Of a stretch of 64,000 nucleotides of DNA, positions 16,750-46,599 are shown piece after piece. Within the stretch, counting starts at the first letter, position 1, and each line of letters opens with the position of its first letter. The DNA is taken from positions 402,929 to 466,928 of the forward strand of contig CBDHGI010000006.1 of the NCBI GenBank assembly GCA_965263075.1. The letters are read 5' to 3'. The position numbers were made by a program, and so were the translations under genes. Below the pieces are notes generated by a model. It ran no database searches and was not told where the DNA came from. It saw only the letters and a list, made by a program, of their open reading frames with translations. This DNA comes from Chloroflexota bacterium. Its GTDB lineage: Bacteria > Chloroflexota > UBA11872.

Positions 16750-16857
16750 GTAGGAGGACGCTGAGCTGGTGATAATGGAAGCGATGACAAAAGCTCTGGG
16801 GATGATGCACACACGCGCCCCTGCGACCTGCCGTGACCGGCGCCTGGTGCCCACGCG

Positions 16858-18734: not shown

Positions 18735-19682
18735 GTGGCAATTGCCGAAGCCGAACGACTGACGGCCAAGACCTTCGGGGTTGACGACTCGCATCCGGAC
18801 TGGTGCGGCGGCTGCGGTGATTTCGGGATCCTCAGCGCCGTCAAGCAGGCGCTGGCCCAGTTGGGCCGCCCGCCGCATGAAGTCGCCGTCATCTCCGGCA
18901 TCGGCTGCGCCGGCAAGCTCCCCCACTACATCAACGCCTACGGCCTGCACAGCCTGCACGGGCGCGCGCTCAACGTCGCCACCGGCGTCAAGCTTGCCAA
19001 CCAGAACCTTGAAGTCCTCGTAGCCGGCGGCGACGGCGATGGCTATGGCATCGGCGCGGGCTACTTCGTCAACTCGGGCCGCCGCAACCTCAACATCGCC
19101 TATCTCGTCCACAACAACGGCGTCTACGGTCTCACCAAAGGCCAGGCCGCTCCCACGATGCGCCGCGGCCAGAAGACCAAGGGCATGGCCGAAGCGGCTA
19201 TCCAGGAGAGCGTCAATCCCATCGGCCTGGCTATCGCATCTGGCTACACCTTCATCGCCCGCGGCTACGCCATGGCCCAGCCGGACCTCGTGAGCCTGAT
19301 CGTGCAAGCGATGCAGCACCGCGGAACCGCCCTGATCGACATCCTGCAACCCTGCCCGATCTACAACGACCTGATGACCATTGACTTCTTCCGCGGTCGG
19401 GACGTTGGCCACAACCGCATCTACCGGCTTGCCGACGAGGGTTTCGAAGGGCGTGTGCAGGACCCGAGCAATCCGGACGAGATCATTGCCAAGCAGCAGG
19501 CCGCGATCGCCAAGTCCTTCGAATGGGGGGACCGCATTCCCACCGGCGTGCTCTACCAGGTGGACACCCCGACCTATGAGGACGAACTGGCCGGCCGCCT
19601 ACCCGAACTGGCAACCACCAGCCTGGTGGACCTGGCAACCCCCGGCCGGGACGTCAGCCGCCTTCAGGACGCCTACCGCTAG
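18735..19682 (+). CDS. korB: 2-oxoacid:ferredoxin oxidoreductase beta subunit (TPP-binding, KorB)
   Basis: GVDDSHPDWCGGCGDFGIL ... GGDGDGYGIGAGYF TPP-binding motif. Likely GTG start at 18735 preceded by AGGAAGG. The ORF track shows a longer form overlapping korA. Confidence 0.85.
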   Translation: MAIAEAERLTAKTFGVDDSHPDWCGGCGDFGILSAVKQALAQLGRPPHEVAVISGIGCAGKLPHYINAYGLHSLHGRALNVATGVKLANQNLEVLVAGGDGDGYGIGAGYFVNSGRRNLNIAYLVHNNGVYGLTKGQAAPTMRRGQKTKGMAEAAIQESVNPIGLAIASGYTFIARGYAMAQPDLVSLIVQAMQHRGTALIDILQPCPIYNDLMTIDFFRGRDVGHNRIYRLADEGFEGRVQDPSNPDEIIAKQQAAIAKSFEWGDRIPTGVLYQVDTPTYEDELAGRLPELATTSLVDLATPGRDVSRLQDAYR

Positions 19683-19700
19683 GAGCTTTCCGCCAGCGGC

Positions 19701-21432: not shown

Positions 21433-21506
21433 GCCCCCGTAGCTCAGAGGATCAGAGCGACGGCCTTCTAAGCCGTGGGTCGCAGGTTCGAGTCCTGCCG
21501 GGGGCG
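21433..21506 (+). tRNA. tRNA-Arg (anticodon TCT)
   Basis: Cloverleaf folded by hand: acceptor GCCCCCG/CGGGGGC, D-arm GCTC..GAGC, anticodon stem ACGGC/GCCGT with loop CTTCTAA (U33, anticodon TCT), T-arm GCAGG TTCGAGT CCTGC, discriminator G. CCA is not encoded. Confidence 0.85.
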
Positions 21507-21759
21507 CCGCCAAACAGGTGCGCCGGGCGTCCTGAACCTGGAAACCAGCACCCGGACGGAAGCCGCAGACCGTGCCATTGCTCCTGGAAGGGGACACCGG
21601 CCAGCAAACTGGCCCAAACGCGGTTAGGCCGAGTCGCAGTCGTAGAGGGTGTCCAAGAGGCAACGGACAAAGTGCGGGTGGACACTCTCGCCGCCGACGA
21701 CGTCAAGGTCAGCGTCGGTCAGCCCTGGCTCCGCCATCTTCGTCACGTTGCCAGCCGCA

Positions 21760-25705: not shown

Positions 25706-26209
25706 TACGATTTGGCTGTGCCGACGGGAGGCGGTGGACAGGATTGAACGCGGGGCGACTTGGCGGGCAGCCTGGAACCGGGCGCTGTTCGAGGGGGGTG
25801 GCCGATGTCCTGGCGATGGCGGACGGTTGGGCAGGTTGCCCGCCACCCGCACCGTTGAGCTGGTGCAGGCGTTGGGCCGATTGGCGGACACGCAGGTGAC
25901 GGCTGTCTGTCGGGAGGTCCGTCAGTTGCCGTAACCGACGCTGGCTGTCGGGCAGGTTGGCTGGCGCGCTCGGACGACTGACGAGGACATCCACCAGCGC
26001 ATTTGGCTGGCTCGACGAGTGGCCTTGGACAATAAGGACTGTGGCGGATGGAGGCGGTCGAGCCGGCGGCTGGACAACGTCGCGATGTGTCGGGGGATGG
26101 TACGGGCTCGAAAAAACTGGTGACAACTGTGGCTCTGGGCGCTAGATTCAGAGTTCCCACAGTGCCGTGGGAGTGTCAACGGTGTACTTGTGATGCCAAG
26201 CTGCGATTT

Positions 26210-27217
26210 ATGAGCCTAACCCTACAGGCCGCGACCGCGGACTTTCTGGCGGCCATGCGCGCCAAATCGCCGAGCACTCGCGCGACGTACGGTACGGGGC
26301 TGCGGCGTTTCGTGGCTTGGCGCGGGCCCGAGACGACACTGGCCGAGCTGGACGACGGACTCCTGGAGCGCTTTTACCTGGACTTGGTCGACGAGTTCGG
26401 ACGTGAGCGTCAGGCCACGATTTCGACCTACCTGGCGGCGGTTCGGGCCTTTCTGCGGCACTGCCTGCGTTCCGGCTCGCTGGGTGGGCTGGAGCTAGAG
26501 CGGGCCGTGGAGCGCCTGCGCGCCGTACGCGACAAGCCGGGCTACCGCACGCCGCGCGTCGAGAACGGCTTGGCGCTGATAGTTGATTATGTCAAGAACG
26601 AGTTGCCGAGTCTTGTCGCGGATTCGGCTTCGGCGGATGTCCGCCTGCGCGTGTACAGGGATCGGGCCTTGTTGCTGCTGCTGTTCACAACCGGCATGCG
26701 ACGGCGCGAGGTGGCACGGCTCGATCGGCGAGACGTTGACGACGGTCGAGCCCGACAGGCGCTGATTACCGGCAAAGGCGACCGGGAGCGGGTGGTGTTC
26801 TTTGACGACGACGCGCGCGAGGCAATTCGCGGTTACCTGGACGCGCGGCACGACGCGTACGCGCCGCTGTTCATCCGCCACCACGGCAAGCCGAAGAACC
26901 CGGGGCGGGCGGGCGAGCGCTTGCGTCTGTCGCCGCAGTCGATATGGAAGATCGTAAAGACATACGGGGCGGCCGTGGGCGTGCCGGCGACGACGCATGA
27001 CTTTCGGCATCTGAAGGCCACGTCCCTATTGAATCGCGGGGCGAACCTGTCGGAGGTTCAGGACATCCTGGGACACGCCTCGCCGGATACGACCAAGCGC
27101 ATCTACGCGCATTACGAGACCGCCAGATTGCGCGAGGCGTTTGACCGCTACAGCCCGACAGTGGAAGAGGCCGCGGCGGCGGCGCGGCAGACGCGGACGC
27201 CGGCGGGGTCACGGTAG
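26210..27217 (+). CDS. Tyrosine-type site-specific recombinase/integrase (XerC/XerD-phage integrase family)
   Basis: C-terminal catalytic blocks HDFRHLKAT ... LGHASPDTTKRIYAHY (R-H-R-Y signature) and an N-terminal SAM-like core-binding domain. The likely start is the ATG at 26210 (MSLTLQAATADFLAAMR). The ORF track extends to 26048. Confidence 0.85.
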   Translation: MSLTLQAATADFLAAMRAKSPSTRATYGTGLRRFVAWRGPETTLAELDDGLLERFYLDLVDEFGRERQATISTYLAAVRAFLRHCLRSGSLGGLELERAVERLRAVRDKPGYRTPRVENGLALIVDYVKNELPSLVADSASADVRLRVYRDRALLLLLFTTGMRRREVARLDRRDVDDGRARQALITGKGDRERVVFFDDDAREAIRGYLDARHDAYAPLFIRHHGKPKNPGRAGERLRLSPQSIWKIVKTYGAAVGVPATTHDFRHLKATSLLNRGANLSEVQDILGHASPDTTKRIYAHYETARLREAFDRYSPTVEEAAAAARQTRTPAGSR

Positions 27218-32713: not shown

Positions 32714-33286
32714 ATGAGGTTGTTCGCATCCCGGCGGGAGCGGCGGTTGTGGTTGTGGACGCTGGCAGTGGTCGTGGCGATCTACTCGACGCTGGGGCTG
32801 ACGGGCACGCTTGCCGAGTGGCTGCGGGAGCACGGTTTTTTGGACGCCGCCGTGTTCTTTCTGCTTGGCATGTTCCTGGTGGGCGCCACGATCATCACGC
32901 AAGGGGTCAGGGTACGGATCGGCAAAGCCGAGATCGCCGTGGCGATGGGAGTTGTGGCCGCGTATCTGATGGTGTTCACAAGAATGGCGATCCTGGAAGA
33001 GCGCTCGCACCTGATCGAATACGGAGTGCTAGGCGTGTTCATCCACGAGGCGCTGGCCGAGCGGGTGAGGCAGGGTCGGCGAGTGCCTCTGCCGCCGCTG
33101 CTGGCCGTCCTGGCGACAGCAACTCTGGGGGTAATCGACGAGGGCATTCAGTGGTTTCTGCCCACCCGTGTGTTCGATCCGCAGGACATCCTGTTCAACC
33201 TGCTGGCGGGCACGATGGCGATTGGCGCCGTCATGGTCCTGGCATGGGCGCGGCGGCGAACGAGTCGCGCCAGACGCGGCACGTAG
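32714..33286 (+). CDS. VanZ-like family membrane protein (paralog 1)
   Basis: 190 aa, 4 TM. VanZ-type block VIDEGIQWFLPTRVFDPQDILFNLLAG. Confidence 0.65.
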   Translation: MRLFASRRERRLWLWTLAVVVAIYSTLGLTGTLAEWLREHGFLDAAVFFLLGMFLVGATIITQGVRVRIGKAEIAVAMGVVAAYLMVFTRMAILEERSHLIEYGVLGVFIHEALAERVRQGRRVPLPPLLAVLATATLGVIDEGIQWFLPTRVFDPQDILFNLLAGTMAIGAVMVLAWARRRTSRARRGT

Positions 33287-33289
33287 ACC

Positions 33290-33907
33290 ATGAACTGGTT
33301 TTCCTCGCCTCGGGAACGGCGCCTGTGGCTGTGGAGTGCTGCTGTCGTGGCGGCGATCTACTCCACGCTCGGACTGGCGGGGACGCTAGCCGAGACCCTC
33401 CGCGAATACGAGCTGCTGGACGCCTCGGCCCTGGTCCTGTTTGCCATGTTCCTGCTGGGGGCAACGATCTTCACGCTGGGCATCAGGATGCGGCCCCGCG
33501 GGGCGGAGATCGCAGTGCTCCTCGGCCTCACATTCGTTTACCTGCTGCTGTTCCTGCGCACTACGGTGAGTCCGGCGGAGCGCACGCACCTGATGGAGTA
33601 CGGCGTGCTGGGCGTGTTCATTCACGAAGCGCTGGTCGAGCGGGCAAGCCAGGGGCGGCGCGTTCCCGTTCCCGCGGTGGTGGCTGTGGTCTCGGCCGCG
33701 GCAATTGGTGTGGTGGACGAGGGGATCCAATGGTTCTTGCCGAATCGAGTGTTCGACCCAGTGGACATGCTGTTCAACTTTTTGGCGGCTACGACGTCGG
33801 TAGCGGCGGTTGTCGCGCTGGCGTGGGCTCGGAGGTGGACCTTGCGACGACTCCGACGCCCAGGGGCCAGCGGTGGTCGGCGGCGAGGTGGTGGAGGGCG
33901 GCGTTGA
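33290..33907 (+). CDS. VanZ-like family membrane protein (paralog 2; the C-terminal Arg/Gly tail is encoded antisense to a miaA remnant)
   Basis: 205 aa and collinear with paralog 1 (VVDEGIQWFLPNRVFDPVDMLFNFLAA). Separated from it by 3 nt. Confidence 0.65.
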   Translation: MNWFSSPRERRLWLWSAAVVAAIYSTLGLAGTLAETLREYELLDASALVLFAMFLLGATIFTLGIRMRPRGAEIAVLLGLTFVYLLLFLRTTVSPAERTHLMEYGVLGVFIHEALVERASQGRRVPVPAVVAVVSAAAIGVVDEGIQWFLPNRVFDPVDMLFNFLAATTSVAAVVALAWARRWTLRRLRRPGASGGRRRGGGGRR

Positions 33908-34899: not shown

Positions 34900-35193
34900 G
34901 TGAGCCGCGAGATCAACCGCGACTACGCACCCGTGGGATCCGCGGCACCCGACGCCACCGTGGCGGCGGGCGCGCTGGATCATGACTCCACGTCGACCTA
35001 TGCCCTGACGCTGACGGCGACCGACGCCCACCGCGGCACGGCCACCACCACAGTGAGCGTGGCGGTGACGGACGTGCCGCCCGCGCCGGAACTCGGGGCG
35101 GCCAGCTACGCCTTCACGGTGGCCGAGGACACGGCCGTCGCCACCCAGGTCGGGACGATCCGGGCCACGGTCGCCGTGACCAGCGGGGGCTGA
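34900..35193 (+). pseudogene. Fragment of a cadherin-repeat surface protein gene (no start codon; truncated)
   Basis: YALTLTATDAHRGTATTTVSVAVTDVPPAPE ... ASYAFTVAEDTAVATQVGTIRATV matches the cadherin repeat consensus (Y.L.V.A.D..G...T..V.I.V.DVND..P.F....Y...V.E....G..V..V.A.D). The frame opens without an initiator. Confidence 0.5.
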
Positions 35194-35199
35194 TTGGGG

Positions 35200-36138
35200 C
35201 TACCGGAGGTCGGCGGCGAGGTGGTGGAGGGCGGTCTTGAGTGCGGTGTCGGGTGGGTGCCAGTGGGTGGGGAGTTGGTGGCGGAACCAGGTGCGTTGGC
35301 GGCGGGCGTATTGGCGGGTGCGGATGGTGGTGCGTTCGATGGCCTCGGACAATGTGAGCTGGCCGTCGAGGTGGGCCAGCGTTTCGGCGTAGCCGACGCC
35401 GGTCAGGGCCGGGAGGGTGCGGTCGTAGCCCTGATCGCGGAGCCGGCGGGCTTCGTCGAGGAGGCCGTTCTGGAACATGTGCGCGGTGCGCTGGGCGATG
35501 CGGTCGGCCAGCGTTGCGGGTTCGACTTCCAAGCCGAGGACATAAGCCGGGATGGGACGAGTGGCCGAGGGCTGGCTTTCGGGCGCGGTCTCGTGGCGCC
35601 GGGACTCTGCGATTTCCAGGGCACGGATCAGGCGGCGGGGGTTGTTGAGGTCGATGGAGGCGGCACGGTCGGGGGCAATTTCGCGCAGGCGGTCGATCAG
35701 GAGTTCAGGTCCCTCGGCTTGGAGTTGGCACGTCAGGCGTTGGCGTAGCTCGGGATCGGGCGGTGTCGCGCCGAGCGGGGAGCCGGTGAGCAGGGCCTGG
35801 ATGTAGAAGCCGGTGCCGCCGACGAGGACCGGAATGGCTCGCCGTGACCTGATTGCATTGATTGCCGTGCGTGCGATGCGGGCAAAGCGGTGAGCGCTGA
35901 ATGATTGGTCAGGGTCGATTATGTCAACTAGGTGATGGGGTAGACGCCGCCGCTCGGCCCGCGTGGGTTTGGCCGTGCCCACGTCCAGGCCTCGGTAGAC
36001 CTGCCGGGAGTCGGCGGAGATGACTTCGATGGACGCGTGTTCGGTCAGCTCCAGGGTAAGGCTGGTTTTGCCGGTGGCGGTGGGTCCGGCGATGACGAGG
36101 AGCGGCGGACGTTGGACGTCCTGAGTTACGTGCAGCAA
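35200..36138 (-). CDS. miaA: tRNA dimethylallyltransferase (tRNA delta(2)-isopentenylpyrophosphate transferase)
   Basis: LLVIAGPTATGKTSLTLELTEHASIEVISADSRQVYRGLDVGTAKPT (P-loop and MiaA signature). 312 aa, intact. Confidence 0.9.
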   Translation of the reverse strand: MLHVTQDVQRPPLLVIAGPTATGKTSLTLELTEHASIEVISADSRQVYRGLDVGTAKPTRAERRRLPHHLVDIIDPDQSFSAHRFARIARTAINAIRSRRAIPVLVGGTGFYIQALLTGSPLGATPPDPELRQRLTCQLQAEGPELLIDRLREIAPDRAASIDLNNPRRLIRALEIAESRRHETAPESQPSATRPIPAYVLGLEVEPATLADRIAQRTAHMFQNGLLDEARRLRDQGYDRTLPALTGVGYAETLAHLDGQLTLSEAIERTTIRTRQYARRQRTWFRHQLPTHWHPPDTALKTALHHLAADLR

Positions 36139-36309: not shown

Positions 36310-39300
36310 CTAGCGTTGGCTCTGGCCGTTATTCCTGATCTGGGTGCCGAATTCCTCCCAACTCGCCTGTCCATCTCCATCAAAGTCCACAGTGAGAGAC
36401 GGGTACTGACTGGCCGAGCCAAAGTCCCAAACATCCGTCAGTTCAGCGGCCATTGGATACGCAAAGATCGGAATCCCAGGTCCGACTGAGTGGCGCCACG
36501 GCGCATATATCCCTGCGTAATCCGTGGGCTCCTGCAACTCCGAGCCGGTCTTGCCGACGATTTGCACATTTCCGTCCCACCACCGCCTGGGAAAATGGGC
36601 AGCATTGGTTGGTTCATTCCTGCCGAACCCAACTGACTGACCCGTTGCCTGCGTGTCCCATAAACTGTTTATCACAGCGCTCAGATTCACTCCAACCAGG
36701 CCTCCCACCAGGTCGTCTCCTACGACATAGGCCGTGGTATAGCTGTCGATGATCACAGCGGGCCTCTGGCTCCCCCCGTTCCAACCCACGAGTCCGCCAA
36801 CATGCCGCTGGCCGGAGACGCTACCCATGGAATAGCTGACAAGGACGTCGTACCCATTGTTTCCGACCAGTCCACCCACGGTTTCGCCACCAGACACTTC
36901 GGTGTTCGCGTAGCTTGAATCTATCGTGTCGAAGTTGTATCCAACCAGTCCGCCAACTGACTCCCTACCCGTCACCTGTCCGGTCGCGTAGCTGGCGCGC
37001 ACCTTGCCTCCATTCCCGCCGACTAGGCCGCCAACAACCTCGTCTCCAGCGACGATTCCGGAAGCGTATGTTGCATGGAGCGTTCCATACAGCAGTCCGA
37101 TGAGGCCTCCCACATAGTCTGTGCCTTTGACATCCACCTCTGCGTAACTTGATTCTATTTGCCATCCCTGAATAGCATTCTCCGAGTCCTGGTTGTACCC
37201 CACAAGTCCGCCAACGTGGGTAGTTCCTGATACCAGGCCGGTGGCATAGCTATGACTGATGATGCCCCGATTCTCTCCGACCAAAGAGCCTACCGACGCC
37301 AGGCCAGTGACGAGCACATCATTGAGGCCAATACCGCGAATGACCGCGGAAGAACCTGTGAACCCGAAGAGTCCGGCTGCCCCGGCATCTTCCAGAAACG
37401 TCGTTCTGTTGACGAAGAGACTCCGAATGGTATGTCCATTGCCTTCAAACGTGGCAGAAAACGAAGTCTCGCTTGATCCAACCCCTATGGGTAACCAACC
37501 ACTGCCCCTTGTCCACAGAGGGTTTACCACGCCGTACGAATAGCTTTCGAGATCTTGAAAATCAAGCGGCCGGGTCAATTCGTAACCATTGCACCCGCTG
37601 CAAGGATTGGTTTCCGCAGCGGGAAAAGCCGACGCGTAAGCCTTGTCCCCGGCGCCATCGGGGATCCCATTGCCATCTAAATCGAAGCGGACGGCATTCA
37701 GCTGCTCTAGATTCGAGACTTCGATCAGTCCGTCCGAGTCAGTATCGAGACTCTGGCTAGCTGGCACGGTCGCTACCGGGGTCGTGACGGGCGCAGGTGT
37801 ATCCGGGGGCGCGGCGGACGGGGCCGTTGACGACGGTTCCCGCCCTTGCTCACCGAATTCCTGCCAGGTTGCAACGCCGTCGCCATCGAATTCGGCTTTG
37901 AGCACCGGGTACTGTTGGCTGGTACCAAAGTCCCAAAAGTCACCGGCTCCCGTTTCCAAGGTATAGTCACCATCAGCATTGTCCAGATCGATGTTCCAGG
38001 CACTGAAGACTCCAGTGAATCCGGCGGGCGATTGAAGCTCGGCCGTGGTCTTGCCAGAATTCGTCGGGACATTGCCATCGCCAGTGCCGTTGGACTGACC
38101 GGATACGTCGATGTCCCAAAAACTGAGGATTAGCCGCCCAGGATTTCGTCCGGTGAGTCCGCCGACGGAAGTCTCGCCGCTCACGAACGCGGCGGCGTAG
38201 CTCGCAATTACCGTTCCCGGGCCGCCTTCGTCCCATCGGTCAACCCACGGCATCGAATTGTCACCGACGAGACCTCCAACGACCACTGATCCCGACACGC
38301 TTCCGGTGGCAAAGCTGGCGATGATAGACCCTGAATTGGCTCCGGCGATACCTCCAGCAGCTTCGTGTCCCGACACATCCCCGGTGGCGTAACTGGCCGT
38401 GACGTTGCTCGGATCGTTACCCGCGGCGTTGACTCCGACGAGACCGCCTACCCTGGAGCGTCCAGCCACGGGCCCCTTTGCATACGTGAAGGCGACATGA
38501 CCTTCTTCGTTACGGCCGACCAGGCCACCAACCTCAGAGCCGCCGGTCACGTTCGCGGTGGCAAAGCTGGCGGTAACTGACGCCTTCTGGCCACGCCAAC
38601 CCTCGGTGTTCCATCCGACCAGTCCTCCTATCCGTGACTCGCCGGACGTTTCGGTTGCGGAGTGGCTAAACCTGATGAGGCGACGGTTGGTCCCAACCAA
38701 TCCACCCACATTGTTCTTGCCGCTTACCCTGCCGGTGGTGTATGAATTGAAAACGTCACCCTCGTTCGTAGCGGCCAAACCACCCACATTGTTCCCGCCA
38801 GTGATGTCTACGTTTATGACGCCAATATTTCGAATCACGCTGTCCTCTTGCACATGCGCGAAGAGTCCCGATGCCTCATTGGTACGATCGTCGAGATCCG
38901 TGACCTTGACGTAGAGGTTACTAATGACATGCTCGTTGCCATCGAATGTGGCTGGAGAGCGAAAATAGCCAAGGTCTTCAGGCTGCCAGCCTATGCCGCT
39001 CCGCCAATCCGCGTTCACGACTCCGGTCGCGTAGCTACTCGGATCTGCAAAGTCCAGCGAGCGCGTGAGCTCATATCCAAAGCAAAAGTCGCAGACCTCT
39101 TCATTGTCCTTGATGGGAAACGCTGCGTAAAACGGCTTTCGCACCGCAGGATAGTCGGGGCGTCCGTTGCCGGCCCTATCCATACCCATTGCAGCTAACT
39201 GCTCCAAATTGGAGACTTCAATCAGCCCATCGGCATCCTTGTCGTAGTTACCGTTGTCGCGTTGGATCCCAGCGATTCGACCCTGAGGGCCAAACTCCTC

Positions 39301-40908
39301 CCACGTAGCAGTCCCATCTCGGTTGGCGTCGACTTTCAGTGCCGGATACTGATTTAGTCGACCAAAGTCCCAGACATCGTCAACGCCGGTGTCGCGATTG
39401 TCATCCGCGTCTGCGTTGTCGACGTCCAGCTGCCAGTTCTCGAATGGGCCGCTGTAGTCGGTGGTACCCTGAAGCACAGAGGTTGGAACGCTGCGACTGC
39501 TGGACGGATTACCCTCACCAACATCGTTCAATTGACCCGAGACGTGAGTATCCCAGACGCTATCCAGGACAACCACTGTCTCCCAATCACTATACGGTAC
39601 GTTTCTTCCTATCAGAGCACCGACAATGCCGTTGCTTTCGACGTGACCGACACCGAAGGTGGCTCGCACGGTACCAGCCTCGTTTGATCCGATAATACCG
39701 CCGACAATCGTACCGCCCGAGACGTTGCCAAGGGCGTACGCTGCGATTATGTCACCAATGTTCATCCCGACCAGACCGCCGGCAGAGTCAATCCTATCCC
39801 GCACCGATCCCGCGGCGTAGCTTACCGTTACGACGCCGCTGTTGGAACCGATCAGGCCACCGATGTCCTCTGCTCCGACGATCCGTCCGGTCGCGTAGCT
39901 CTTAGAAATGTTCCCATCATTCGCACCAACCAAGCCGCCAGCCTGCCAGATTCCCAGCACATTTCCGCTAGCGTAGCTCTCGACAATGTCCCCGTGATTG
40001 CCCCCTATCAGTCCCCCACAGCGACTATCGGCGCAGGCTACACTGCCTGTAGCGTAGCTGCTTGCGACGCTACCCCGGCTGAAGCCGACCAGAGCTCCAA
40101 TTTCGTACTCTCCGGAAGCGCCGCCGTTCGCATGACTGCCCAGGATCGAACCATAGTTGGTTCCGACAAGACTGCCAATCTGGGACCAGCCGAGTACCCG
40201 TGCCGACGACCGACTATCTTGAATGACACCGTGGTTCTCTCCGACGAGACCTCCAATCTGGTCGATTCCGTCGACATTTCCGGAGGCGTGGCTGCGCTCA
40301 ATCATCCCCCGGCTGTAGCCGGCCAGGGCTCCGACCAATCTGAAGCCTGTGACGTCCGCCTTCAGGTCATCTACTCGCGCGACAACTGCCGTGCTATCCA
40401 AATAGCCAAAGAGTCCTACTGGTCGCGGATCAACGCTCTCTTCAAGCCGAAGAATGTAGAGGTTGGAGACGACGTGCTCGTTGCCCTCGAACGTTGCCGC
40501 AAAGGGACTGACTTCCGTGCCGATAGGCGTCCATCCCTCACCGGTTCTCCACGCTCTGTTCGTCGCGCTTGACGCGTAGCTATCCGGGTCGGAGAAATCC
40601 AAATCTCTGGCCAGTTCATATCCCTGGCACGTGGGTGTGCATGCAACCCGTAACGAGGTCTGCGAAAAGGCCCTGTAAAAAGCTTCCTCGGCACGAGACC
40701 CGTCGGGCTTTCCGTCGCCATTGAGATCATTTCGAATGGCGTCGAACTGTTCGAGATTATTGATCTCAATGAGACCGTCGTCATCCAGATCGTGATCGCC
40801 GCTGACCGCTCGGACAGTGGTGGCAGCGCTGCAAGCCAGAACAGCGAAGAGCATGACGAGCCATAGCAAGTTTGACACCAGCGGAGTGCTGGCCCGGCTC
40901 GGAATCAT
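36310..40908 (-). CDS. Giant secreted repeat protein (about 1532 aa mature-length ORF). It has a signal peptide and three tandem ~470-aa units, each with a DxDxDGLIE(V/I)xNLEQ calcium-loop-like motif, a GYELTR/ATFEGNxH block, 8-10 GLUG-like (GGLVGxNxGxI..SYATGxVSG) beta-helix repeats and a DFWDFG..QYP.LK.DFDGDG..W.EFG terminal block. Function unknown; candidate adhesin or surface-layer component.
   Basis: ORF track 36310..41139. The first 77 codons are Arg-rich without homology, and the ATG at 40906-40908 gives the classic signal peptide MIPSRASTPLVSNLLWLVMLFAVLACSA. The internal triplication is visible in the protein (DHDLDDDGLIEINNLEQ / DKDADGLIEVSNLEQ / DTDSDGLIEVSNLEQ). Confidence 0.85.
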   Translation of the reverse strand: MIPSRASTPLVSNLLWLVMLFAVLACSAATTVRAVSGDHDLDDDGLIEINNLEQFDAIRNDLNGDGKPDGSRAEEAFYRAFSQTSLRVACTPTCQGYELARDLDFSDPDSYASSATNRAWRTGEGWTPIGTEVSPFAATFEGNEHVVSNLYILRLEESVDPRPVGLFGYLDSTAVVARVDDLKADVTGFRLVGALAGYSRGMIERSHASGNVDGIDQIGGLVGENHGVIQDSRSSARVLGWSQIGSLVGTNYGSILGSHANGGASGEYEIGALVGFSRGSVASSYATGSVACADSRCGGLIGGNHGDIVESYASGNVLGIWQAGGLVGANDGNISKSYATGRIVGAEDIGGLIGSNSGVVTVSYAAGSVRDRIDSAGGLVGMNIGDIIAAYALGNVSGGTIVGGIIGSNEAGTVRATFGVGHVESNGIVGALIGRNVPYSDWETVVVLDSVWDTHVSGQLNDVGEGNPSSSRSVPTSVLQGTTDYSGPFENWQLDVDNADADDNRDTGVDDVWDFGRLNQYPALKVDANRDGTATWEEFGPQGRIAGIQRDNGNYDKDADGLIEVSNLEQLAAMGMDRAGNGRPDYPAVRKPFYAAFPIKDNEEVCDFCFGYELTRSLDFADPSSYATGVVNADWRSGIGWQPEDLGYFRSPATFDGNEHVISNLYVKVTDLDDRTNEASGLFAHVQEDSVIRNIGVINVDITGGNNVGGLAATNEGDVFNSYTTGRVSGKNNVGGLVGTNRRLIRFSHSATETSGESRIGGLVGWNTEGWRGQKASVTASFATANVTGGSEVGGLVGRNEEGHVAFTYAKGPVAGRSRVGGLVGVNAAGNDPSNVTASYATGDVSGHEAAGGIAGANSGSIIASFATGSVSGSVVVGGLVGDNSMPWVDRWDEGGPGTVIASYAAAFVSGETSVGGLTGRNPGRLILSFWDIDVSGQSNGTGDGNVPTNSGKTTAELQSPAGFTGVFSAWNIDLDNADGDYTLETGAGDFWDFGTSQQYPVLKAEFDGDGVATWQEFGEQGREPSSTAPSAAPPDTPAPVTTPVATVPASQSLDTDSDGLIEVSNLEQLNAVRFDLDGNGIPDGAGDKAYASAFPAAETNPCSGCNGYELTRPLDFQDLESYSYGVVNPLWTRGSGWLPIGVGSSETSFSATFEGNGHTIRSLFVNRTTFLEDAGAAGLFGFTGSSAVIRGIGLNDVLVTGLASVGSLVGENRGIISHSYATGLVSGTTHVGGLVGYNQDSENAIQGWQIESSYAEVDVKGTDYVGGLIGLLYGTLHATYASGIVAGDEVVGGLVGGNGGKVRASYATGQVTGRESVGGLVGYNFDTIDSSYANTEVSGGETVGGLVGNNGYDVLVSYSMGSVSGQRHVGGLVGWNGGSQRPAVIIDSYTTAYVVGDDLVGGLVGVNLSAVINSLWDTQATGQSVGFGRNEPTNAAHFPRRWWDGNVQIVGKTGSELQEPTDYAGIYAPWRHSVGPGIPIFAYPMAAELTDVWDFGSASQYPSLTVDFDGDGQASWEEFGTQIRNNGQSQR

Positions 40909-41610
40909 GGCCGCCCAACTGTCAGGGTTCAAATTGGGGTATCCCGGGTGACCACGCAAGGGCCGATTCCCTGGTCCAAGAACTGTGGCGGCGTCCCGCC
41001 AGGCGCGTGGGCCCGCCGTGGCCAGTTGTGACTTTCGAGCCGTGGCGCCGGCAGCTCGCCGGCCGGGGAAATTCGTCCAGGCAGCCGCACGCGTAGAGGT
41101 ACGCATGGGGTGGCTCTGCCGGTTGCCACGGCTCGACACGCCTGAAATCTGCGTCGAGGCTCAACACGCCAGCGGCCTCGCTTCGCCCGGGCTAGCATGA
41201 GCCCAATGTGCCAAGTGTGCGTGGCTTGATGCAGCACCTGCGTCACGTTTCCCTCTGGCGCGCCAGAGACTACGAAGAGACGTACATGGTATTCGGCGAG
41301 AACGTAGAGTTTTGCATACAGCCATTCCGATATGGAGTGCTGGGCGACACAGCTAGCTGCTCGTGCCCGGGCAACTGTTGGTCCCAGTAGACGGCGGCGG
41401 CGCGCGCCAGGCTTTGTTTGAACGATTAGATATCTACTCGGCGGTCCGTCTCTCGGTATCGAGCGCGCCCGGAGTCGTATTGGTCGGGAAGGCTGTCTGG
41501 CAAGAATTGCCACTACTGTTCTCGCCATCCAAGCTGTGTCCCCTCTCACCGCGACGGCACGCGCAGGCTTGGAGACCAACGGCGATTACGGCCGAGGGTC
41601 GAATGGGGCA

Positions 41611-42396
41611 TCAGCGAGAGGCGGCTAAGCCCAAGATCTCGAGTTGCCCTTGCGAAGCCGACTCTCGGCTGCGGCGAGGCTTGGGCACGGACCCGACCGA
41701 CCTCGGCTGCCCCGTCCAACCGTGGATCAAGTGAGATTTCGGTTTACCTGTAGGTATCACGACCGTGGGGATGCGCTTCCAACGGGTGTGCAGGCTTGAT
41801 CGCCAACTGTCCCCCTTCGCCGCGGAGGGTAATGCGAACCATGCGCTCGGTGCGTTGGGCGATGCGCTTGGCCAATGTCGCGGGTTCGACCTGCAGGCCG
41901 AGGATGTAGGCCGGGATGGACCGGTTGGTTGCGGGCTGGTGGCGTTGGGATTCGGCGATTTCGAGGGCGCGGATGAGGCGGCTGCGTGTTCGGGGTCGGG
42001 CGGCGTGGCGCCGAGCGGGGAGGCTGTGAGCAGCGCCTTGATGTAGAAGCCGGTGCCGCCGACGACAAGCGGGATGGCCCGCCGCGCCCGGATCTCGTCG
42101 ATCGCGGCGTGCGCTATGCGTACAAAGCGGTGTGCGTTGAAGACCTGGTCGGGGTTGATTATGTCAATGAGGTGGTGTGGCGCACGTCGCCGCTCGGCCG
42201 GCGTGGGCTTGGCCGTGCCGATGTCCAGTCCGCGATAGACCTGCCGGGAGTCGGCGGAGATGACTTCGATCGGCAGATGCTCCGCGAGCTCGAGCGCCAG
42301 GCTGGTCCTGCCGCTGGCGGTGGGTCCGCCGATAACGAGCAGTGGCCGCTCAGGCATTGCCGCGGGCTCCTCGCGATACCATGGGCGACGCCCCAA
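41611..42396 (-). pseudogene. miaA remnant, copy 3. The N-terminal ~125 codons are intact, then a ~100-nt internal deletion/frameshift, and the C-terminus is missing.
   Basis: MPERPLLVIGGPTASGRTSLALELAEHLPIEVISADSRQVYRGLDIGTAKPT ... GATPPDPE, then the frame changes. DNA 41760-42010 aligns to 35480-35830 of the intact miaA with a deletion. The antisense peptide GGVAPSGE is shared. Confidence 0.65.
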
Positions 42397-42421
42397 CCTT
42401 CACGCAGGGTCCCTTGCGCGC

Positions 42422-43426
42422 ATGACCCAGGCCGAACCCGACGACGCGCCCGTCGCGACATCCGCGGGTCCGTACAGCAACCTGCAGGCGGTGTTGGAGG
42501 CCGGTGAGTTTGCGGTTACCTGCGAGCTGGGTCCGCCGCGGGCGCCGGACGCGGCCGACGTGCTGAAGAAGGTCGGGATCATCCGTGGATACGTGGATGC
42601 GGCCAGTTGCACCGATAACCAAGGCGCGGCGCTGAAGATGGCCAACTGGGGCGCGGCGCTGCTGTGCCTCCAGGGCGGGGTGGAGCCGATCATGCAGCTT
42701 TCCTGCCGCGACCGGAACCGGCTGGCCATCCAATCCGACGTGATTGCGGCGCAAGCGTTCGGCGTGCGTAATTTTATGTCAATCAGCGGCGATTCCCTGG
42801 TGCTTGGCGATCATCCCATGGCCAAGCCGGTATTCGATCTACAGGGTGTGCAACTTGTGCGTCTGCTGCGCCGGCTGCGTGACGAAGGCCGAACGGCCGC
42901 CGGCGATCCGATAGCAGGCGAGTTTGGCTATTTGATTGGCGGCGCGGCCAATCCCTTCGCGCCGCCCTACGGCTGGCGTCCGCTGCGTCTGCTGAAGAAG
43001 GCCGAGGCGGGCCAGGAGTTCGCCCTGACGCAGATGATCTTCAACGTGGACCGCTTTGCCGACTGGATGTCATACGTGCGCGACGAAGGTCTGGATAAAC
43101 GTGTGCACATCTTCGCGGGCGTGGGACCGCTGAAGTCCGCCCGCATGGCCGAATTCATGAAGTTCAAGATCGCGGGCATGGAAGTGCCGGACGCCGTGGT
43201 GGAACGGATGCGGGCGGCCAAGAAGCCGCGCACCGAGGGCGTGAAGATTTGCCTGGAGATTATCGAGCAGGTGCGTGAGATTCCGGGCGTGCACGGGATT
43301 CACATCATGGCCATCGACTGGGAACGGGCCGTCCCGCGCATCGTGAAAGCGGCCGGCTTGAAGCTGCCCAGGCCCGTTCCCGAACCGTCGCTGGCGCCTG
43401 GGCTGCCCGCGGCGGCTATTGCCTGA
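42422..43426 (+). CDS. metF: 5,10-methylenetetrahydrofolate reductase (MetF family)
   Basis: FAVTCELGPP ... SCTDNQGA ... MQLSCRDRNRLA ... FNVDRF blocks. The likely ATG at 42422 (MTQAEPDD) gives 334 aa. The ORF track starts at 42260. Confidence 0.8.
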   Translation: MTQAEPDDAPVATSAGPYSNLQAVLEAGEFAVTCELGPPRAPDAADVLKKVGIIRGYVDAASCTDNQGAALKMANWGAALLCLQGGVEPIMQLSCRDRNRLAIQSDVIAAQAFGVRNFMSISGDSLVLGDHPMAKPVFDLQGVQLVRLLRRLRDEGRTAAGDPIAGEFGYLIGGAANPFAPPYGWRPLRLLKKAEAGQEFALTQMIFNVDRFADWMSYVRDEGLDKRVHIFAGVGPLKSARMAEFMKFKIAGMEVPDAVVERMRAAKKPRTEGVKICLEIIEQVREIPGVHGIHIMAIDWERAVPRIVKAAGLKLPRPVPEPSLAPGLPAAAIA

Positions 43427-44060
43427 CGTGGAGGCGTCCACCGGCGACTCGCTGGCCGAGTTTCTGGACGCCCTGGGCTCCTCACAACCCACGCCGGGCG
43501 GCGGAGCGGGCGCGGCGGTGGCGCTGGGGATGGGAGCGGCGCTGGTTGGCATGACGGCGCGGCTGACGACAGGACGCCGCCGGTTTCGGGCGGTGCAGGC
43601 GGACATGGAACGGGTGATCGAGCGCTGCGACACGATTCGGGCGTCGGCGCTGGAACTGGCCGCGGCGGACGCCGCGGCCTATGGGGACGTGATGGCGGCG
43701 TACGCGCTGTCGCGTGGAACCGAGGCCGAGCGGCGCGCGCGTCGCACGACGATTGCCCGCGCCGCCGAGCACGCAAGCCGGGTTCCACTACAGGTTGCAG
43801 GCACCGCCGCCAAGGTGATCGAGCTAGCCGCGGAGACCGCCACGAAGGGCAACCCCAGCGTGATCAGCGACGCCGGGGCCGGGGCAGCGCTGGCGCGCAC
43901 GGCGATCCGAATCAGCGAGATGAATGTGCAGGCGAATCTGGGGTCGATCGACGACGCAGCGATTCGCGCCGAACTGGCGGCGGAACTGGACGAAGCCCGA
44001 GCGGCGCGCGACGCGGCGGACAACGTGGTTGATGCCGTGCTGAGTCAGAGTTCGGCATGA
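43419..44060 (+). CDS. fchA: Methenyltetrahydrofolate cyclohydrolase / formiminotransferase-cyclodeaminase C-domain family protein (FchA-like)
   Basis: LGSSQPTPGGGAGAAVALGMGAALVGM signature of the FTCD_C/cyclodeaminase family. 213 aa. Confidence 0.7.
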   Translation: MPDVEASTGDSLAEFLDALGSSQPTPGGGAGAAVALGMGAALVGMTARLTTGRRRFRAVQADMERVIERCDTIRASALELAAADAAAYGDVMAAYALSRGTEAERRARRTTIARAAEHASRVPLQVAGTAAKVIELAAETATKGNPSVISDAGAGAALARTAIRISEMNVQANLGSIDDAAIRAELAAELDEARAARDAADNVVDAVLSQSSA

Positions 44061-44920
44061 GTCGAGCGGAAGTCTGGTCGGGCCGCGGGCCGGCGCGGGC
44101 GCTACGGGCAGCCGTACAGGCACGTGTCGAGGCACTCGCCGATGCCGGTCCACTCGCGCTGCACATGATTCGGGTCGGGGACGACCCGTCGGCAAGGGGA
44201 TACGCCCGGGCCGTACAGCGCGCGTGCAATCGCGTGGGCGTGCGGGCGGCGATGGGCAACTTGCCTGCCGACTCCTCAACCGGCTCTGTGGTGGACCACG
44301 TGAAGGCGTTGAACGCGGACGGCGGCGTGCACGGCATCCTGTTGGGGTTTCCGCTGGCGGCACATCTGGACGTGGCTGCGATCGCCGACGCCATCGACCC
44401 GGCGAAGGACGTGGACCGGGTAACCACGGCTGCGATCGGCGAATTGTTTGCCGGTCGTACGCAGCTTGGACCGGCCACGGCGGCAGCGGTTATCGCGCTA
44501 CTGGACTTCTACGAGGAGCCAATTGCCGGCCGCGAGGTCGTGGTGGTTGGACGCAGCAACGTGGTGGGCAAACCACTGTGGGCCATGCTGCTGGCTCGTA
44601 ACGCAACAACGACGGTGTGTCATTCACGCACCGTCGATCTTCCGGCGGTGACTTCGCAGGCTGAGATCCTGGTGGTGGCCACGGGTAGCCCCGGCCTGAT
44701 TGGGGCGGAACACGTCGGCCCGGACGCTGTGGTCGTTGACGTCGGCACGACGTACCAAAACGGCAAGGTGGTGGGCGATGTGGACTTTGAAGCCGTCGCC
44801 GCGCGCGCCCGCGCGGTTACGCCCGTGCCGGGCGGGATCGGCCCGATTACGAACTACTGCCTAATGCGCAACCTCGTGGAGCTTGTCGAATGCCGCCACC
44901 AGTCACCGGAGACCGCATGA
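44057..44920 (+). CDS. folD: Bifunctional 5,10-methylene-THF dehydrogenase / 5,10-methenyl-THF cyclohydrolase
   Basis: VVVVGRSNVVGKPLWAMLL ... PVPGGIGPIT blocks. Overlaps neighbours by 4 nt on both sides. Confidence 0.85.
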   Translation: MSRAEVWSGRGPARALRAAVQARVEALADAGPLALHMIRVGDDPSARGYARAVQRACNRVGVRAAMGNLPADSSTGSVVDHVKALNADGGVHGILLGFPLAAHLDVAAIADAIDPAKDVDRVTTAAIGELFAGRTQLGPATAAAVIALLDFYEEPIAGREVVVVGRSNVVGKPLWAMLLARNATTTVCHSRTVDLPAVTSQAEILVVATGSPGLIGAEHVGPDAVVVDVGTTYQNGKVVGDVDFEAVAARARAVTPVPGGIGPITNYCLMRNLVELVECRHQSPETA

Positions 44921-46599
44921 GCCCCTCGCAACCGCCGGACATCGAAATCGCGCAAAGCGCCGCTCTGAAGCCGATCGAGGAGGTCGCGGCCAGCCTTGAG
45001 CTTGCCGCCGACGAGATCGATCCGTATGGGCGGACCAAGGCCAAGATCACGAGGGCCGCCATCGATGCGCGGCGCGCCGTGCCGGACGGCGATCTGATCC
45101 TGGTTACAGCCATCACCCCGACGCCGGCCGGGGAAGGCAAGACCACGACCACGATCGGGCTGACGCAGGCGTTGCAGCGGCTGGGTCACCGAGCGATCAG
45201 CGCCACGCGGGAACCGTCGCTGGGTCCAGTGTTTGGCGTGAAGGGCGGGGCGGCGGGCGGCGGCTACGCGCAGGTGCTGCCGATGGAGGACATCAACCTG
45301 CATTTCACCGGCGACTTCGCGGCGATCAGCGCGGCGCACAACCTGCTGGCGGCGATGCTGGACAACCATCTGCACCAGGGGAACGCGCTGGGGATCGACG
45401 CGCGTCGGGTGCTGTGGCGGCGCGTCATCGACATGAACGATCGCGCGCTGCACAGCATGGTCATCGGCCTGGGCGGACGCACGCGCGGGGTGCCTCGGGA
45501 GTCGGGGTTCGACATCACGCCGGCCTCGGAAGTGATGGCGGTGCTGTGCCTGGCGCACGATCTAGCTGATCTGAAAGCCCGCTTTGCGCGGATTGCGGTA
45601 GCCGAGCGCAAGCCCGGTGACTACGTGACCGCAGCCGATCTGACCGCGCATCCGGCGATGGCGATCCTGATGCGCGAGGCGGTGCTTCCCAACCTGGTGC
45701 AGAATCTGGAGGGCGGCCCGGCGCTAATCCATGGCGGCCCGTTCGGCAACATTGCGCACGGCTGCAATTCCCTGATTGCCACGCAACTGGCGTTGAAGCT
45801 GGCCGACCTGGTGGTGACGGAAGCCGGCTTTGGGGCCGACCTGGGCGCCGAGAAGTTCTTCAATATCAAGTGTCCGGCGGGGGGGCTGCGCCCGCGGGTG
45901 GCGGTGCTGGTGGCGACGGTTCGGGCACTGAAGCTGCACGGCGGTGCGAACAGGCGCGACCTGGCCAGCGAGGATCTCGACGCGTTGCGTGCGGGCAGGC
46001 CCAACCTGGCAGCGCACTCGGAAAACCTGCGGAAGTTCGGCGTGCCCGTGGTGATTGCCGTGAATCGTTTTCCGACAGACACCGATGCCGAGGTTGATGC
46101 GGTGATGGCGGCGGCAGAGCAGCTCGGCGCGCCGGCGGCGGTGTCGACCGTCTTCAGCGACGGCGGCGCGGGCGGCGAAGACCTGGCGCGGAAGGTCGTG
46201 GCGACGCTGGAGGCGGGCGAGGACGACTTCAAGCCGTTGTACGAGCCGGCGGCGTCGTTGACCGAGAAGATCGAGACGGTCGCGCGCGAGATCTATGGCG
46301 CCGACGGGGTGGATTACGCGGCGGGCGTGGCGCGACGGTTGCGTCGGCTGGACCGCGGCGCGGCGCGGGGATTCCCGATCTGCATGGCCAAGACGCAGTA
46401 CTCGCTGTCGGACAATCCGGCGTTGCTGGGTCGCCCGAGCGGCTTCCGCGTTACCGTCCGCGACGTACGCCTGTCGGCCGGCGCGGGCTTCGTAGTGCCG
46501 CTGACGGGCGACATATTGACCATGCCGGGGCTGCCGCGGCGGCCGTTTGCCGAGGACATGGACGTGGCTCAAGACGGGACGATTTCGGGCCTGGCGTAG
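44917..46599 (+). CDS. fhs: Formate--tetrahydrofolate ligase
   Basis: TPTPAGEGKTTTTIGL P-loop and FDITPASEVMA / GGPFGNIAHG blocks. The ATG at 44917 overlaps the folD stop (ATGA). Confidence 0.9.
   Translation: MSPSQPPDIEIAQSAALKPIEEVAASLELAADEIDPYGRTKAKITRAAIDARRAVPDGDLILVTAITPTPAGEGKTTTTIGLTQALQRLGHRAISATREPSLGPVFGVKGGAAGGGYAQVLPMEDINLHFTGDFAAISAAHNLLAAMLDNHLHQGNALGIDARRVLWRRVIDMNDRALHSMVIGLGGRTRGVPRESGFDITPASEVMAVLCLAHDLADLKARFARIAVAERKPGDYVTAADLTAHPAMAILMREAVLPNLVQNLEGGPALIHGGPFGNIAHGCNSLIATQLALKLADLVVTEAGFGADLGAEKFFNIKCPAGGLRPRVAVLVATVRALKLHGGANRRDLASEDLDALRAGRPNLAAHSENLRKFGVPVVIAVNRFPTDTDAEVDAVMAAAEQLGAPAAVSTVFSDGGAGGEDLARKVVATLEAGEDDFKPLYEPAASLTEKIETVAREIYGADGVDYAAGVARRLRRLDRGAARGFPICMAKTQYSLSDNPALLGRPSGFRVTVRDVRLSAGAGFVVPLTGDILTMPGLPRRPFAEDMDVAQDGTISGLA

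Follow-up and report, generated by a model that had tools for sequence, protein, structure and literature searches.

Thousands of proteins carry annotated GLUG helices, and the only studied examples that we found are gating domains of IgA1 proteases. In the M26 IgA1 metalloproteases of G. haemolysans (7UVK) and S. pneumoniae (7JGJ/6XJA), the NTD2 beta-helix is present as a single copy within a zinc protease of ~2000 aa, where it gates the active site, and an adhesin role has not been described for it (PMC9637739). BACOVA_03286 of Bacteroides ovatus (PDB 3N6Z), a structural-genomics entry named 'putative IgA1 protease', consists of a single 339-residue module. Beta-solenoid adhesins such as the SRRP binding region of L. 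reuteri (5NXK) and the Vag8 passenger of Bordetella (7AKV) also possess one helix and are anchored or secreted by LPXTG or autotransporter routes. The calcium-binding loops of EF-hand proteins (calmodulin, Entamoeba CaBP1, dockerins) comprise 12 residues, of which positions 1, 3 and 5 are Asp and position 6 is Gly, and DxDxDG loops are found in many unrelated structural contexts. Finally, cadherin and fn3 genes are enriched in sponge symbionts and have been read as attachment factors (PMC8163846; COS2_bin_4 study). Literature searches for GLUG combined with beta-helix, Chloroflexi or sponge retrieved nothing relevant.

Here, a GLUG gene of an uncultured Chloroflexota lineage is compared with these systems. 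It is located in a window of 64,000 nt, i.e. the whole stretch of DNA that was analyzed, and with 1532 aa it is indeed the largest gene there, as an earlier note made from the sequence had stated, followed by a gene of 847 aa (Table 1). The minus-strand frame is open from its stop at 36310 up to 41139; the start was placed at the ATG at 40908, with an in-frame TTG at 40932 as the alternative that some orthologs use. An upstream ORF of 216 codons (40929-41579) that overlaps the leader was rejected as a gene because it shows neither a Pfam match nor a coding-type GC3 pattern, and a scan for promoter and terminator consensus sequences performed no better than on shuffled sequence.

Table 1. Features of the GLUG locus in window coordinates, with residue numbers of the 1532-aa protein
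Feature	Residues (aa)	Position	Strand	Basis
Decayed second miaA copy (pseudogene), upstream of the GLUG gene		41611-42396	-	partial IPPT match
Non-coding leader of ~500 nt, travelling with the gene		40909..41404	-	nucleotide identity among loci
CDS of the GLUG protein, stop included	1-1532	36310..40908	-	ORF list and translation, Pfam Glug, dN/dS
Putative signal peptide with lipobox-like AVLAC (Cys26)	1-26	40831..40908	-	hydrophobic core LLWLVMLFAVLA, conserved Cys
Unit 1	38-547	39268..40797	-	self-alignment and motif positions
Unit 1 parts: N-cap; helix (10-11 coils); C-tail	~38-150; ~151-455; 456-547
Unit 1 N-cap double loops DLDDDGLIEINN and DLNGDGKPDGSR, helix between	40-51; 61-72	40693..40791	-	regex scan
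Unit 1 C-terminal EF-hand-like loop DANRDGTATWEE	527-538	39295..39330	-	sub-cutoff Pfam EF-hand_1
Unit 2 (chosen for structure modelling)	554-1026	37831..39249	-
Unit 2 parts: N-cap; helix; C-tail	~554-665; ~666-935; 936-1026
Unit 2 N-cap loops DKDADGLIEVSN and DRAGNGRPDYPA (degenerate)	556-567; 577-588	39145..39243	-	regex, Pfam
Unit 2 C-terminal loop EFDGDGVATWQE	1006-1017	37858..37893	-	sequence
Pro/Thr/Ala-rich flexible linker between units 2 and 3	1027-1052	37753..37830	-	sequence
Unit 3	1053-1528	36325..37752	-	self-alignment and motif positions
Unit 3 parts: N-cap; helix; C-tail	~1053-1165; ~1166-1420; 1421-1528
Unit 3 N-cap loops DTDSDGLIEVSN and DLDGNGIPDGAG	1055-1066; 1076-1087	37648..37746	-	regex, Pfam, profile
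Unit 3 C-terminal canonical EF-hand-type loop DFDGDGQASWEE	1508-1519	36352..36387	-	Pfam, below cutoff
Intact miaA, 172 nt downstream of the GLUG gene		35200-36138	-	full-length IPPT match, E 3e-80

The protein is built from three paralogous units of 510, 473 and 476 aa, whose pairwise alignments span the full unit length with 37-42% identity; E-values of 1e-82 to 1e-93 in self-alignment place the triplication far beyond chance, and the identities fall inside the 35-50% that the earlier note had claimed. All sequence blocks quoted there (DxDxDGLIE..NLEQ, GYEL..LDF, ATF(E/D)GN.H, the VGGLVG repeats and WDFG..QYP.LK..DGDG..W.EFG.Q) were recovered, and in the units a C-x2-3-C pair precedes the GYEL..LDF block. 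The repeats are present as described, but their modal period is 26 residues (78 nt, visible in protein and DNA) and not the ~23 residues proposed, yielding ~9-11 coils per unit. Each unit is closer to the unit at the same position in proteins of 46-62% identity than to its own sister units, which agrees with the old triplication suggested for this gene and indicates, at the level of sequence, that the three module types are ancient and kept by position. Insertions specific to a module type occur in unit 2 (DNSMPWVDRWDEGG) and unit 3 (HFPRRWWDGNVQ). Linker lengths range from 4 to 53 aa across the family, and the linker between units 2 and 3 shows a dN/dS of ~0.9-1.5, i.e. it evolves about neutrally and is unconstrained.

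The assignment to GLUG stands on a Pfam match to PF07581 (Glug) with an E-value of 5e-39 and a score of 130.5 bits (cutoff 20.5), distributed over 12 stretches. For unit 2, structure prediction returned a right-handed parallel beta-helix like that of solved GLUG-containing structures, the fold that had been anticipated for a single unit. Sequence searches against PDB chains, using either the whole protein or a profile of 22 modules, gave nothing meaningful; the module is linked to solved GLUG helices by structure comparison only. Among solved structures, the NTD2 gating helices of the M26 proteases come closest, with 18-22% identity to the module and no sequence-level match even by profile search. 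Similarly, the 3N6Z sequence was not retrieved by the 22-module profile, and no sequence relationship to the beta-solenoid adhesins was detectable. The architecture differs as well: in contrast to the single NTD2 copy of M26 enzymes, the protein presents three stand-alone helices without a protease domain, and its modules add a Cys-pair loop and, at either end, DxDxDG loops. Unlike the one-helix adhesins, it consists of tandem capped modules, and its family uses a lipobox or a transmembrane helix as putative anchor.

The acidic loops had been likened to calcium sites of the thrombospondin type 3, EF-hand or dockerin type, and of this proposal the likeness to EF-hand loop sequences holds. The N-cap loops carry the same Asp-Asp-Asp-Gly pattern (positions 1, 3, 5 and 6), the second loop of unit 2 being degenerate (MDRAGNGRPDY), while the three C-terminal loops (family consensus D.DGDG.ATWQEFG) are 12-residue DxDxDGxxxxxE-type loops that also share the Glu at position 12 with EF-hands. 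Module alignments show little or no variation at the Asp and Gly positions of the loops and at the two cysteines of the pair. When an N-cap profile was compared with PDB sequences, the significant matches were EF-hand calcium-binding proteins (best E 2.4e-5), whose printed alignments cover only the 12-residue loops. On the other hand, Pfam EF-hand scores are sub-threshold on both caps (12-21.6 bits against cutoffs of 25-30), as seen for the C-terminal loops of unit 1 (EF-hand_1, E 3.3e-4, 20.4 bits, cutoff 25.4) and unit 3 (EF-hand_6, E 0.024 with the whole protein; EF-hand_1, E 0.023 with the segment). TSP_3 gave no match at E up to 10 on the eight junction and cap segments scanned, and Dockerin_1 none on the segments of the window protein, its sole match being a homolog junction (E 0.025, 15.2 bits, cutoff 22.9). 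The unit 2 N-cap loops were modelled with a pLDDT of 85-90 within the unit, and the unit 3 N-cap alone with 80.6; structure comparison of the isolated N-cap model yielded no EF-hand or dockerin match. Since the first N-cap loop is predicted to lie between an unstructured lead-in and a beta-strand, it does not form the helix-loop-helix of EF-hand proteins, and the models identify the N-cap as a beta-helix cap rather than an EF-hand, dockerin or TSP3 domain. Judged by their sequence, the loops most likely bind Ca2+. A paired EF-hand, made of the C-terminal loop of one unit and the next N-cap, was judged unlikely because of the variable length and neutral evolution of the linkers.

At the N-terminus, Cys26 is kept in nearly all close orthologs that have a complete N-terminus (lipobox-like consensus AV[LS][AS]C), and similar motifs occur in other homologs (LLLAC in P0014, VVGC in P0017 and, by eye, VLTC in P0024). 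The Leu at lipobox position -2 is atypical and fits only a relaxed pattern devised for this analysis. The conserved cysteine suggests that the protein is probably lipid-anchored at Cys26, with type I cleavage after VRA as the alternative. A motif scan of the 1532 aa detected neither LPxTG nor RTX motifs, and in other members of the family a C-terminal transmembrane anchor takes the place of the lipobox.

The protein belongs to a large, unnamed family of putative surface proteins. The N-cap motif is found in about 3300 protein clusters, with proteins of up to 7362 aa and at most 12 N-caps confirmed in one protein. In homologs, the partner domains of the module are cadherin, fn3, LRR, PPC and Calx-beta, and a complete catalytic domain is not among them; the neighborhoods of three distant homologs contain no shared partner genes. 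One orthologous locus (L002) resides in COS2_bin_4, a symbiont MAG of class UBA2235 from the sponge Coscinoderma matthewsi and the sole ortholog-bearing MAG traced to a sponge. A cadherin-repeat gene of ~1200 aa adjoins miaA in this locus and in L005.

Together, the gene is real and conserved and encodes what is probably a lipid-anchored surface protein, and we rate it at slightly better than an even call that this protein is a non-enzymatic, calcium-stabilized cell-surface fibril or adhesin, in line with the adhesin or surface scaffold that the earlier note had hypothesized. It would be exported by the Sec pathway via its signal peptide and then lipidated at Cys26. Outside the cell, the three modules of ~470-510 aa would each fold into a GLUG beta-helix of 9-11 coils of 26 residues. 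A strand-helix cap, bearing a pair of DxDxDG loops as well as a small, possibly disulfide-bonded Cys-x2-3-Cys loop, would close the N-terminal end of each helix, and the WDFG..QYP segment followed by the EF-hand-type loop would complete the C-terminal end. Ca2+, most likely bound by the loops, would rigidify the caps once the chain is extracellular. As the resulting rods would be strung together by Pro/Thr-rich flexible linkers, they are expected to project from the membrane through the wall, where the three positionally conserved module types would present different surface loops that most likely bind host matrix, other cells or polymers. Attachment is the most likely function of the unnamed family to which the protein belongs.

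An unlikely rival to this fibril or adhesin is a structural component of the envelope, either an S-layer-like spacer or a wall-spanning strut of monoderm Chloroflexota with a mechanical or protective role and no specific adhesion. The same anatomy of membrane anchor, rigid rods and flexible linkers would suit such a part, and Pfam recognized no ligand-binding domain. Additionally, the position of the gene is conserved across six orthologous loci and its overall dN/dS is 0.22-0.32 (across six orthologous loci, the window gene being compared with five), so that it is functional, under purifying selection and not hypervariable. However, Pfam and motif scans detected no SLH or other wall-binding motif in the protein, and the partner domains of homologs are of the adhesion type. 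Across the family, the count of modules per protein (from 2 up to 12 or more) and genomic position vary widely and mobile elements are often adjacent, which is typical of accessory surface proteins and not of core envelope parts.

It is improbable that the helices bind or cleave carbohydrates of sponge or algal origin in the manner of pectin-lyase-fold lyases, hydrolases and depolymerases. Matches to pectin-lyase-fold structures share 5-13% identity, reflecting the common fold, and an enzyme would not usually occur as three divergent copies in tandem. The impression that no enzymatic motif is visible was sustained: HExxH is absent from the entire protein, no catalytic or CAZyme-type domain was matched in Pfam or NCBIfam, the latter giving no family match at all, and among 22 diverse modules the invariant helix columns contain only Gly, Leu, Val, Phe or Ala. 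No conserved catalytic acidic or basic helix residue was thus found among these modules, a weak test given that active sites can be lineage-specific. A still fainter prospect is that the protein serves as an accessory or substrate-gating part of an M26 IgA1-like protease system whose catalytic partner is encoded elsewhere. The structural proximity to NTD2 and the Pfam Peptidase_M26_N region of some distant homologs point in this direction, but besides lacking HExxH the protein has no Peptidase_M26_N or Peptidase_M26_C match at E up to 1, and no peptidase gene adjoins it or the examined homologs.

The surroundings of the gene bear out the rearranged miaA locus described earlier, with an intact copy downstream and a decayed copy upstream. 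The pseudogene covers only positions 1-79 of the IPPT profile and matches the intact copy at 80% identity over 119 aa, with a further, shifted match of 125 nt. The leader shows 75-81% nucleotide identity in L001, L002, L004 and L005 and 96% in L006, over a conserved stretch of ~220 nt (L001) to ~500 nt (L005, L006), and contains no Rfam match. The dS of the GLUG gene and miaA (0.41-0.52) is somewhat below that of flanking genes (0.57-1.3), a contrast that is unsafe to interpret because of the NG86 method and differing GC3. Recent horizontal transfer into the source genome was rejected as an explanation of the low GC, because low GC and synteny are common to all orthologous loci. That the gene is a decaying acquisition or an assembly artefact without current function is most unlikely: its GC of 58% and GC3 of 0.63 do depart from its neighbors (65-68%, ~0.8) and a pseudogene lies next to it, but the low GC recurs in all orthologs checked, selection is purifying, and the reading frame runs uninterrupted for ~1500 or more codons in the window and in each of five independent assemblies (L001, L002, L004, L005, L006) and for 1425 codons in L003, up to the end of the contig.

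This locus exemplifies, in clean and conserved form, another use of GLUG helices, as tandem, self-contained modules with calcium-type loops at both ends. If the modules neither bind calcium nor mediate attachment, the protein would still be an unremarkable representative of a large group of uncharacterized surface proteins. More tentatively than the fibril or adhesin itself, we suggest that the capped module may represent an undescribed and widespread extracellular building block that folds or rigidifies only on contact with extracellular Ca2+ and forms long calcium-dependent fibrils for attachment to host matrix in sponge-associated Chloroflexota and other uncultured bacteria. Such fibrils would be the bacterial analogue of cadherin-type adhesion, with a beta-helix as the structural basis. 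For sponge symbionts, host-association factors are now inferred among cadherin, fibronectin-III and repeat proteins. Should the modules be calcium-binding attachment elements, they would form a further, new class of such candidates, and their N-cap motif of ~50 residues would also offer an annotation handle for the nameless protein clusters that carry it.

The minus-strand open reading frame encoding the GLUG protein, named for its GLUG beta-helix modules, ends at position 36310 and stays open as far as 41139. An ATG at 40908 gives a 1532-residue product on translation, while an in-frame TTG at 40932 is the counterpart of the start used in some orthologs; the hydrophobic N-terminus is identical with either. 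The gene is the largest in the window, as an earlier note had stated (runner-up, 847 aa). In a Pfam scan of the protein, Glug (PF07581) reached 130.5 bits (cutoff 20.5) over 12 stretches and was the only family above threshold, which bears out the GLUG assignment; an NCBIfam scan returned no family. With DGLIE and EFG.Q as landmarks, the protein divides into three units (see table), pairwise 37-42% identical over their full length (E 1e-82 to 1e-93), so that the proposed internal triplication holds, and every motif block quoted for it is found. Each unit contains 9-11 coils, with a modal period of 26 residues (78 nt in DNA repeats) in place of the roughly 23 residues first suggested. For unit 2, structure prediction (pLDDT 85, pTM 0.89) yields the anticipated beta-helix, modelled as right-handed from about residue 107 to 398. 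Its N-terminal cap is predicted confidently as one strand, two helices and an additional short helix, and the C-terminal tail at lower confidence. PDB sequence searches with the whole protein and with the module profile gave no meaningful chain match. The equivalent helix of IgA1 proteases is the NTD2 domain, which gates the active site and is itself non-catalytic (PMC9637739).

Coordinates of the GLUG gene, its units (residues) and neighbouring features
Feature	Position	Strand	Remark
tRNA-Arg	21433-21508	plus	only tRNA gene in the window
Tyrosine recombinase (phage-integrase family)	26048-27217	plus	few kb from tRNA-Arg
Two tandem VanZ-family paralogs	32714-33907	plus	
97-aa ORF	34900-35193	plus	sub-threshold Cadherin match
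Intact miaA	35200-36138	minus	downstream of GLUG gene
GLUG gene	36310-40908	minus	
Unit 1	aa 38-547	minus	DGLIE / EFG.Q landmarks
Unit 2	aa 554-1026	minus	DGLIE / EFG.Q landmarks
Unit 3	aa 1053-1528	minus	DGLIE / EFG.Q landmarks
Non-coding leader	40909-41404	minus	~500 nt directly upstream of GLUG gene
Decayed miaA copy	41611-42396	minus	upstream of GLUG gene
Compact one-carbon/folate cluster	42260-46599	plus	MTHFR, FTCD_C (cyclodeaminase-like), FolD, formate-tetrahydrofolate ligase

Among the 120 best homologs, the N-cap follows the consensus YDxDxDGLIE(V/I)xxL(E/A)QLxA(I/V/M)R(Y/H/W)DL(D/N)G(D/N)G (334 distinct instances) and the C-tail WDFGxxxQYPxLKxDxDGDGxxTWxEFGxQ. When 20-22 diverse modules are aligned, both Cys preceding GYEL and several of the Asp and Gly residues in the loops are invariant; the second acidic loop of unit 2 is degenerate. 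When a 53-position N-cap profile was compared with all PDB sequences, the significant matches were EF-hand calcium-binding proteins (Entamoeba CaBP, calmodulin, CaBP1/4, ALG-2 and calbindin; best E 2.4e-5), with the printed alignments confined to the 12-residue loops. Pfam scans of native junction segments recurrently matched EF-hand_1, EF-hand_5 and EF-hand_6, all sub-threshold (12-21.6 bits versus 25), Dockerin_1 gave a single weak match in one homolog, and TSP_3 had no match on the scanned junction and cap segments. The calcium-loop reading of the caps thus stands for the loops, which are EF-hand-like by sequence, and falls for a complete EF-hand, dockerin or TSP3 domain. From sequence, each cap is therefore best described as an ordinary beta-helix cap onto which EF-hand-like loops of the calcium type have been grafted, with putative Ca2+ binding.

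The whole-protein query retrieved more than 4000 matching proteins, none of them named. The N-cap profile alone recovered 3335 representative proteins at E <=1e-3 and 2064 at <=1e-10 among 1.84 billion, the longest having 7362 residues; remote search gave up to 16 matched stretches in one protein, for which a stricter local rescan confirmed 12 caps. Of the 691 caps in the 133 best new representatives, 82% precede three or more GLUG-like motifs and 71% precede the C-tail motif; the median spacing is 474 residues. Partner domains include cadherin, fn3, LRR, PPC, Calx-beta and similar extracellular modules, and no complete catalytic domain occurs in the homologs' architectures. Three distant homologs share no common neighbour genes, and their surroundings often contain transposases, resolvases and toxin-antitoxin pairs. 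Large as it is, the family resembles ordinary accessory surface proteins. The GLUG helix itself is of an already known kind. Neither Pfam nor NCBIfam nor any solved structure covers the tandem module that is capped at both ends and has EF-hand-type loops, and no paper on it was found in the literature on GLUG proteins.

Five Chloroflexota MAGs and one more contig carry orthologs that are 79-90% identical. The rearranged miaA locus described previously is confirmed, the GLUG gene being bracketed by an intact and a decayed miaA copy. In the window, the copies share 80% identity over 119 aa and a 125-nt match offset by 124 nt. The same order is found in five orthologous loci (L001, L002, L004, L005 and L006), and the miaA insertion or duplication is thus ancestral to the clade; the upstream fragment has decayed unequally, to between 13 and 188 aa. 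The contig of the sixth locus, L003, begins within the GLUG gene, placing its upstream side outside the comparison, and has cadherin-like sequence between GLUG gene and miaA. MTHFR occupies the upstream side in L001, L002, L004 and L005. In L006, the contig of the 90%-identical relative P0002, PIN and HEPN/nucleotidyltransferase toxin-antitoxin genes (212-2979) lie upstream of the miaA fragment, at the position of MTHFR in the window; this junction is an insertion hot spot. The folate cluster is highly conserved in related MAGs (dN/dS 0.05-0.2). Next come cadherin-repeat ORFs, VanZ genes and an aminotransferase, in combinations that differ between the orthologous loci. VanZ copy number varies between relatives, with three copies in L004. 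A cadherin-repeat gene of about 1200-1270 aa adjoins miaA in L002 (~16100-18400) and L005 (~18900-21200), and the 97-aa ORF looks like the 3' remnant of such a gene, largely lost from the window. A recombinase similar to that of the window sits at the equivalent position in L006, so that of the window may have an Xer-type housekeeping role and be no mobile-element marker. The leader is 75-81% identical in nucleotides across orthologous loci (96% in L006), over a stretch of between ~220 nt (L001) and ~500 nt (L005, L006). It shows no coding signature, matches nothing in Pfam or Rfam, and may serve as a promoter or 5' UTR or encode a regulatory RNA not yet described.

Over ~1500 codons, the GLUG gene has a pairwise dN/dS of 0.22-0.32; the values are 0.29-0.37 in miaA and 0.05-0.11 in MTHFR, FolD and FTHFS. 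Purifying selection therefore acts on the gene, in the relaxed form that surface proteins commonly show. As the earlier note proposed, the triplication is old: each unit is closest to the same-position unit of proteins only 46-62% identical overall, and two-unit relatives consist of unit-2-type and unit-3-type modules; the three module types are thus maintained separately. In contrast to this fixed arrangement, module number is labile in the family: near-identical tandem modules in the homologs P0020 and P0032 point to recent duplication, and P0131 (6018 aa) contains 12 or more modules, spaced ~455 aa apart. The GLUG gene has 58% GC and a GC3 of 0.63 (58-59% and 0.62-0.64 in L001, L002, L004, L005 and L006), against flanks of 62-71% GC and a GC3 of ~0.8 in neighbouring genes. 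Recent arrival was rejected as the cause, since the low GC is common to all orthologous loci checked, persisting despite ~20% protein divergence, and gives no sign of recent arrival in the window genome. Across L001-L006, dS of the GLUG gene and miaA is 0.41-0.52 versus 0.57-1.3 for most flanking genes in the same genome pairs, which could mean that clade members exchanged this segment later on, or could be an artefact of method and composition.

The protein begins with a charged start and a 12-residue hydrophobic core followed by AVLAC, a lipobox-like motif atypical at position -2. Nearly all close orthologs whose N-terminus is complete keep its Cys, similar motifs occur in more distant relatives (e.g. 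LLLAC in P0014, VVGC in P0017), and some other members have a C-terminal transmembrane helix instead; these features support surface tethering, most likely by lipidation. The Pro/Thr/Ala-rich inter-module linkers are between 4 and 53 residues long, and dN/dS is ~1 in the unit 2-3 linker, versus 0.11-0.44 for caps and helices in the two more distant comparisons, so the modules are read as rods joined by flexible linkers. The best-supported reading is that the three beta-helix rods would form a calcium-stabilised, non-enzymatic, membrane-tethered fibril serving attachment or surface organisation. A purely structural role in the cell envelope would fit the same module anatomy and is unlikely given the accessory-type distribution of the family. 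That the helix is carbohydrate-active, suggested by resemblance of fold and nothing more, is quite improbable, as alignment A1, which combines 22 diverse modules of this protein and its homologs, has no conserved catalytic residues there; the earlier impression that enzymatic motifs are missing fits this, the Pfam result and the absence of HExxH. This absence, with no peptidase gene adjoining, makes a role as accessory to a protease very improbable, and a dead or artefactual gene, contradicted by conservation and dN/dS, can practically be discarded.

Locus L002 belongs to MAG COS2_bin_4, recovered from the sponge Coscinoderma matthewsi and classified as Chloroflexota, class UBA2235, order UBA11872 (supplement of PMC8163846). 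In sponge symbionts, cadherin and fibronectin-III genes are reported to be enriched and laterally transferred, and have been read as attachment factors (PMC8163846). The window is closely syntenic with this MAG and so likely derives from a related sponge-associated lineage.
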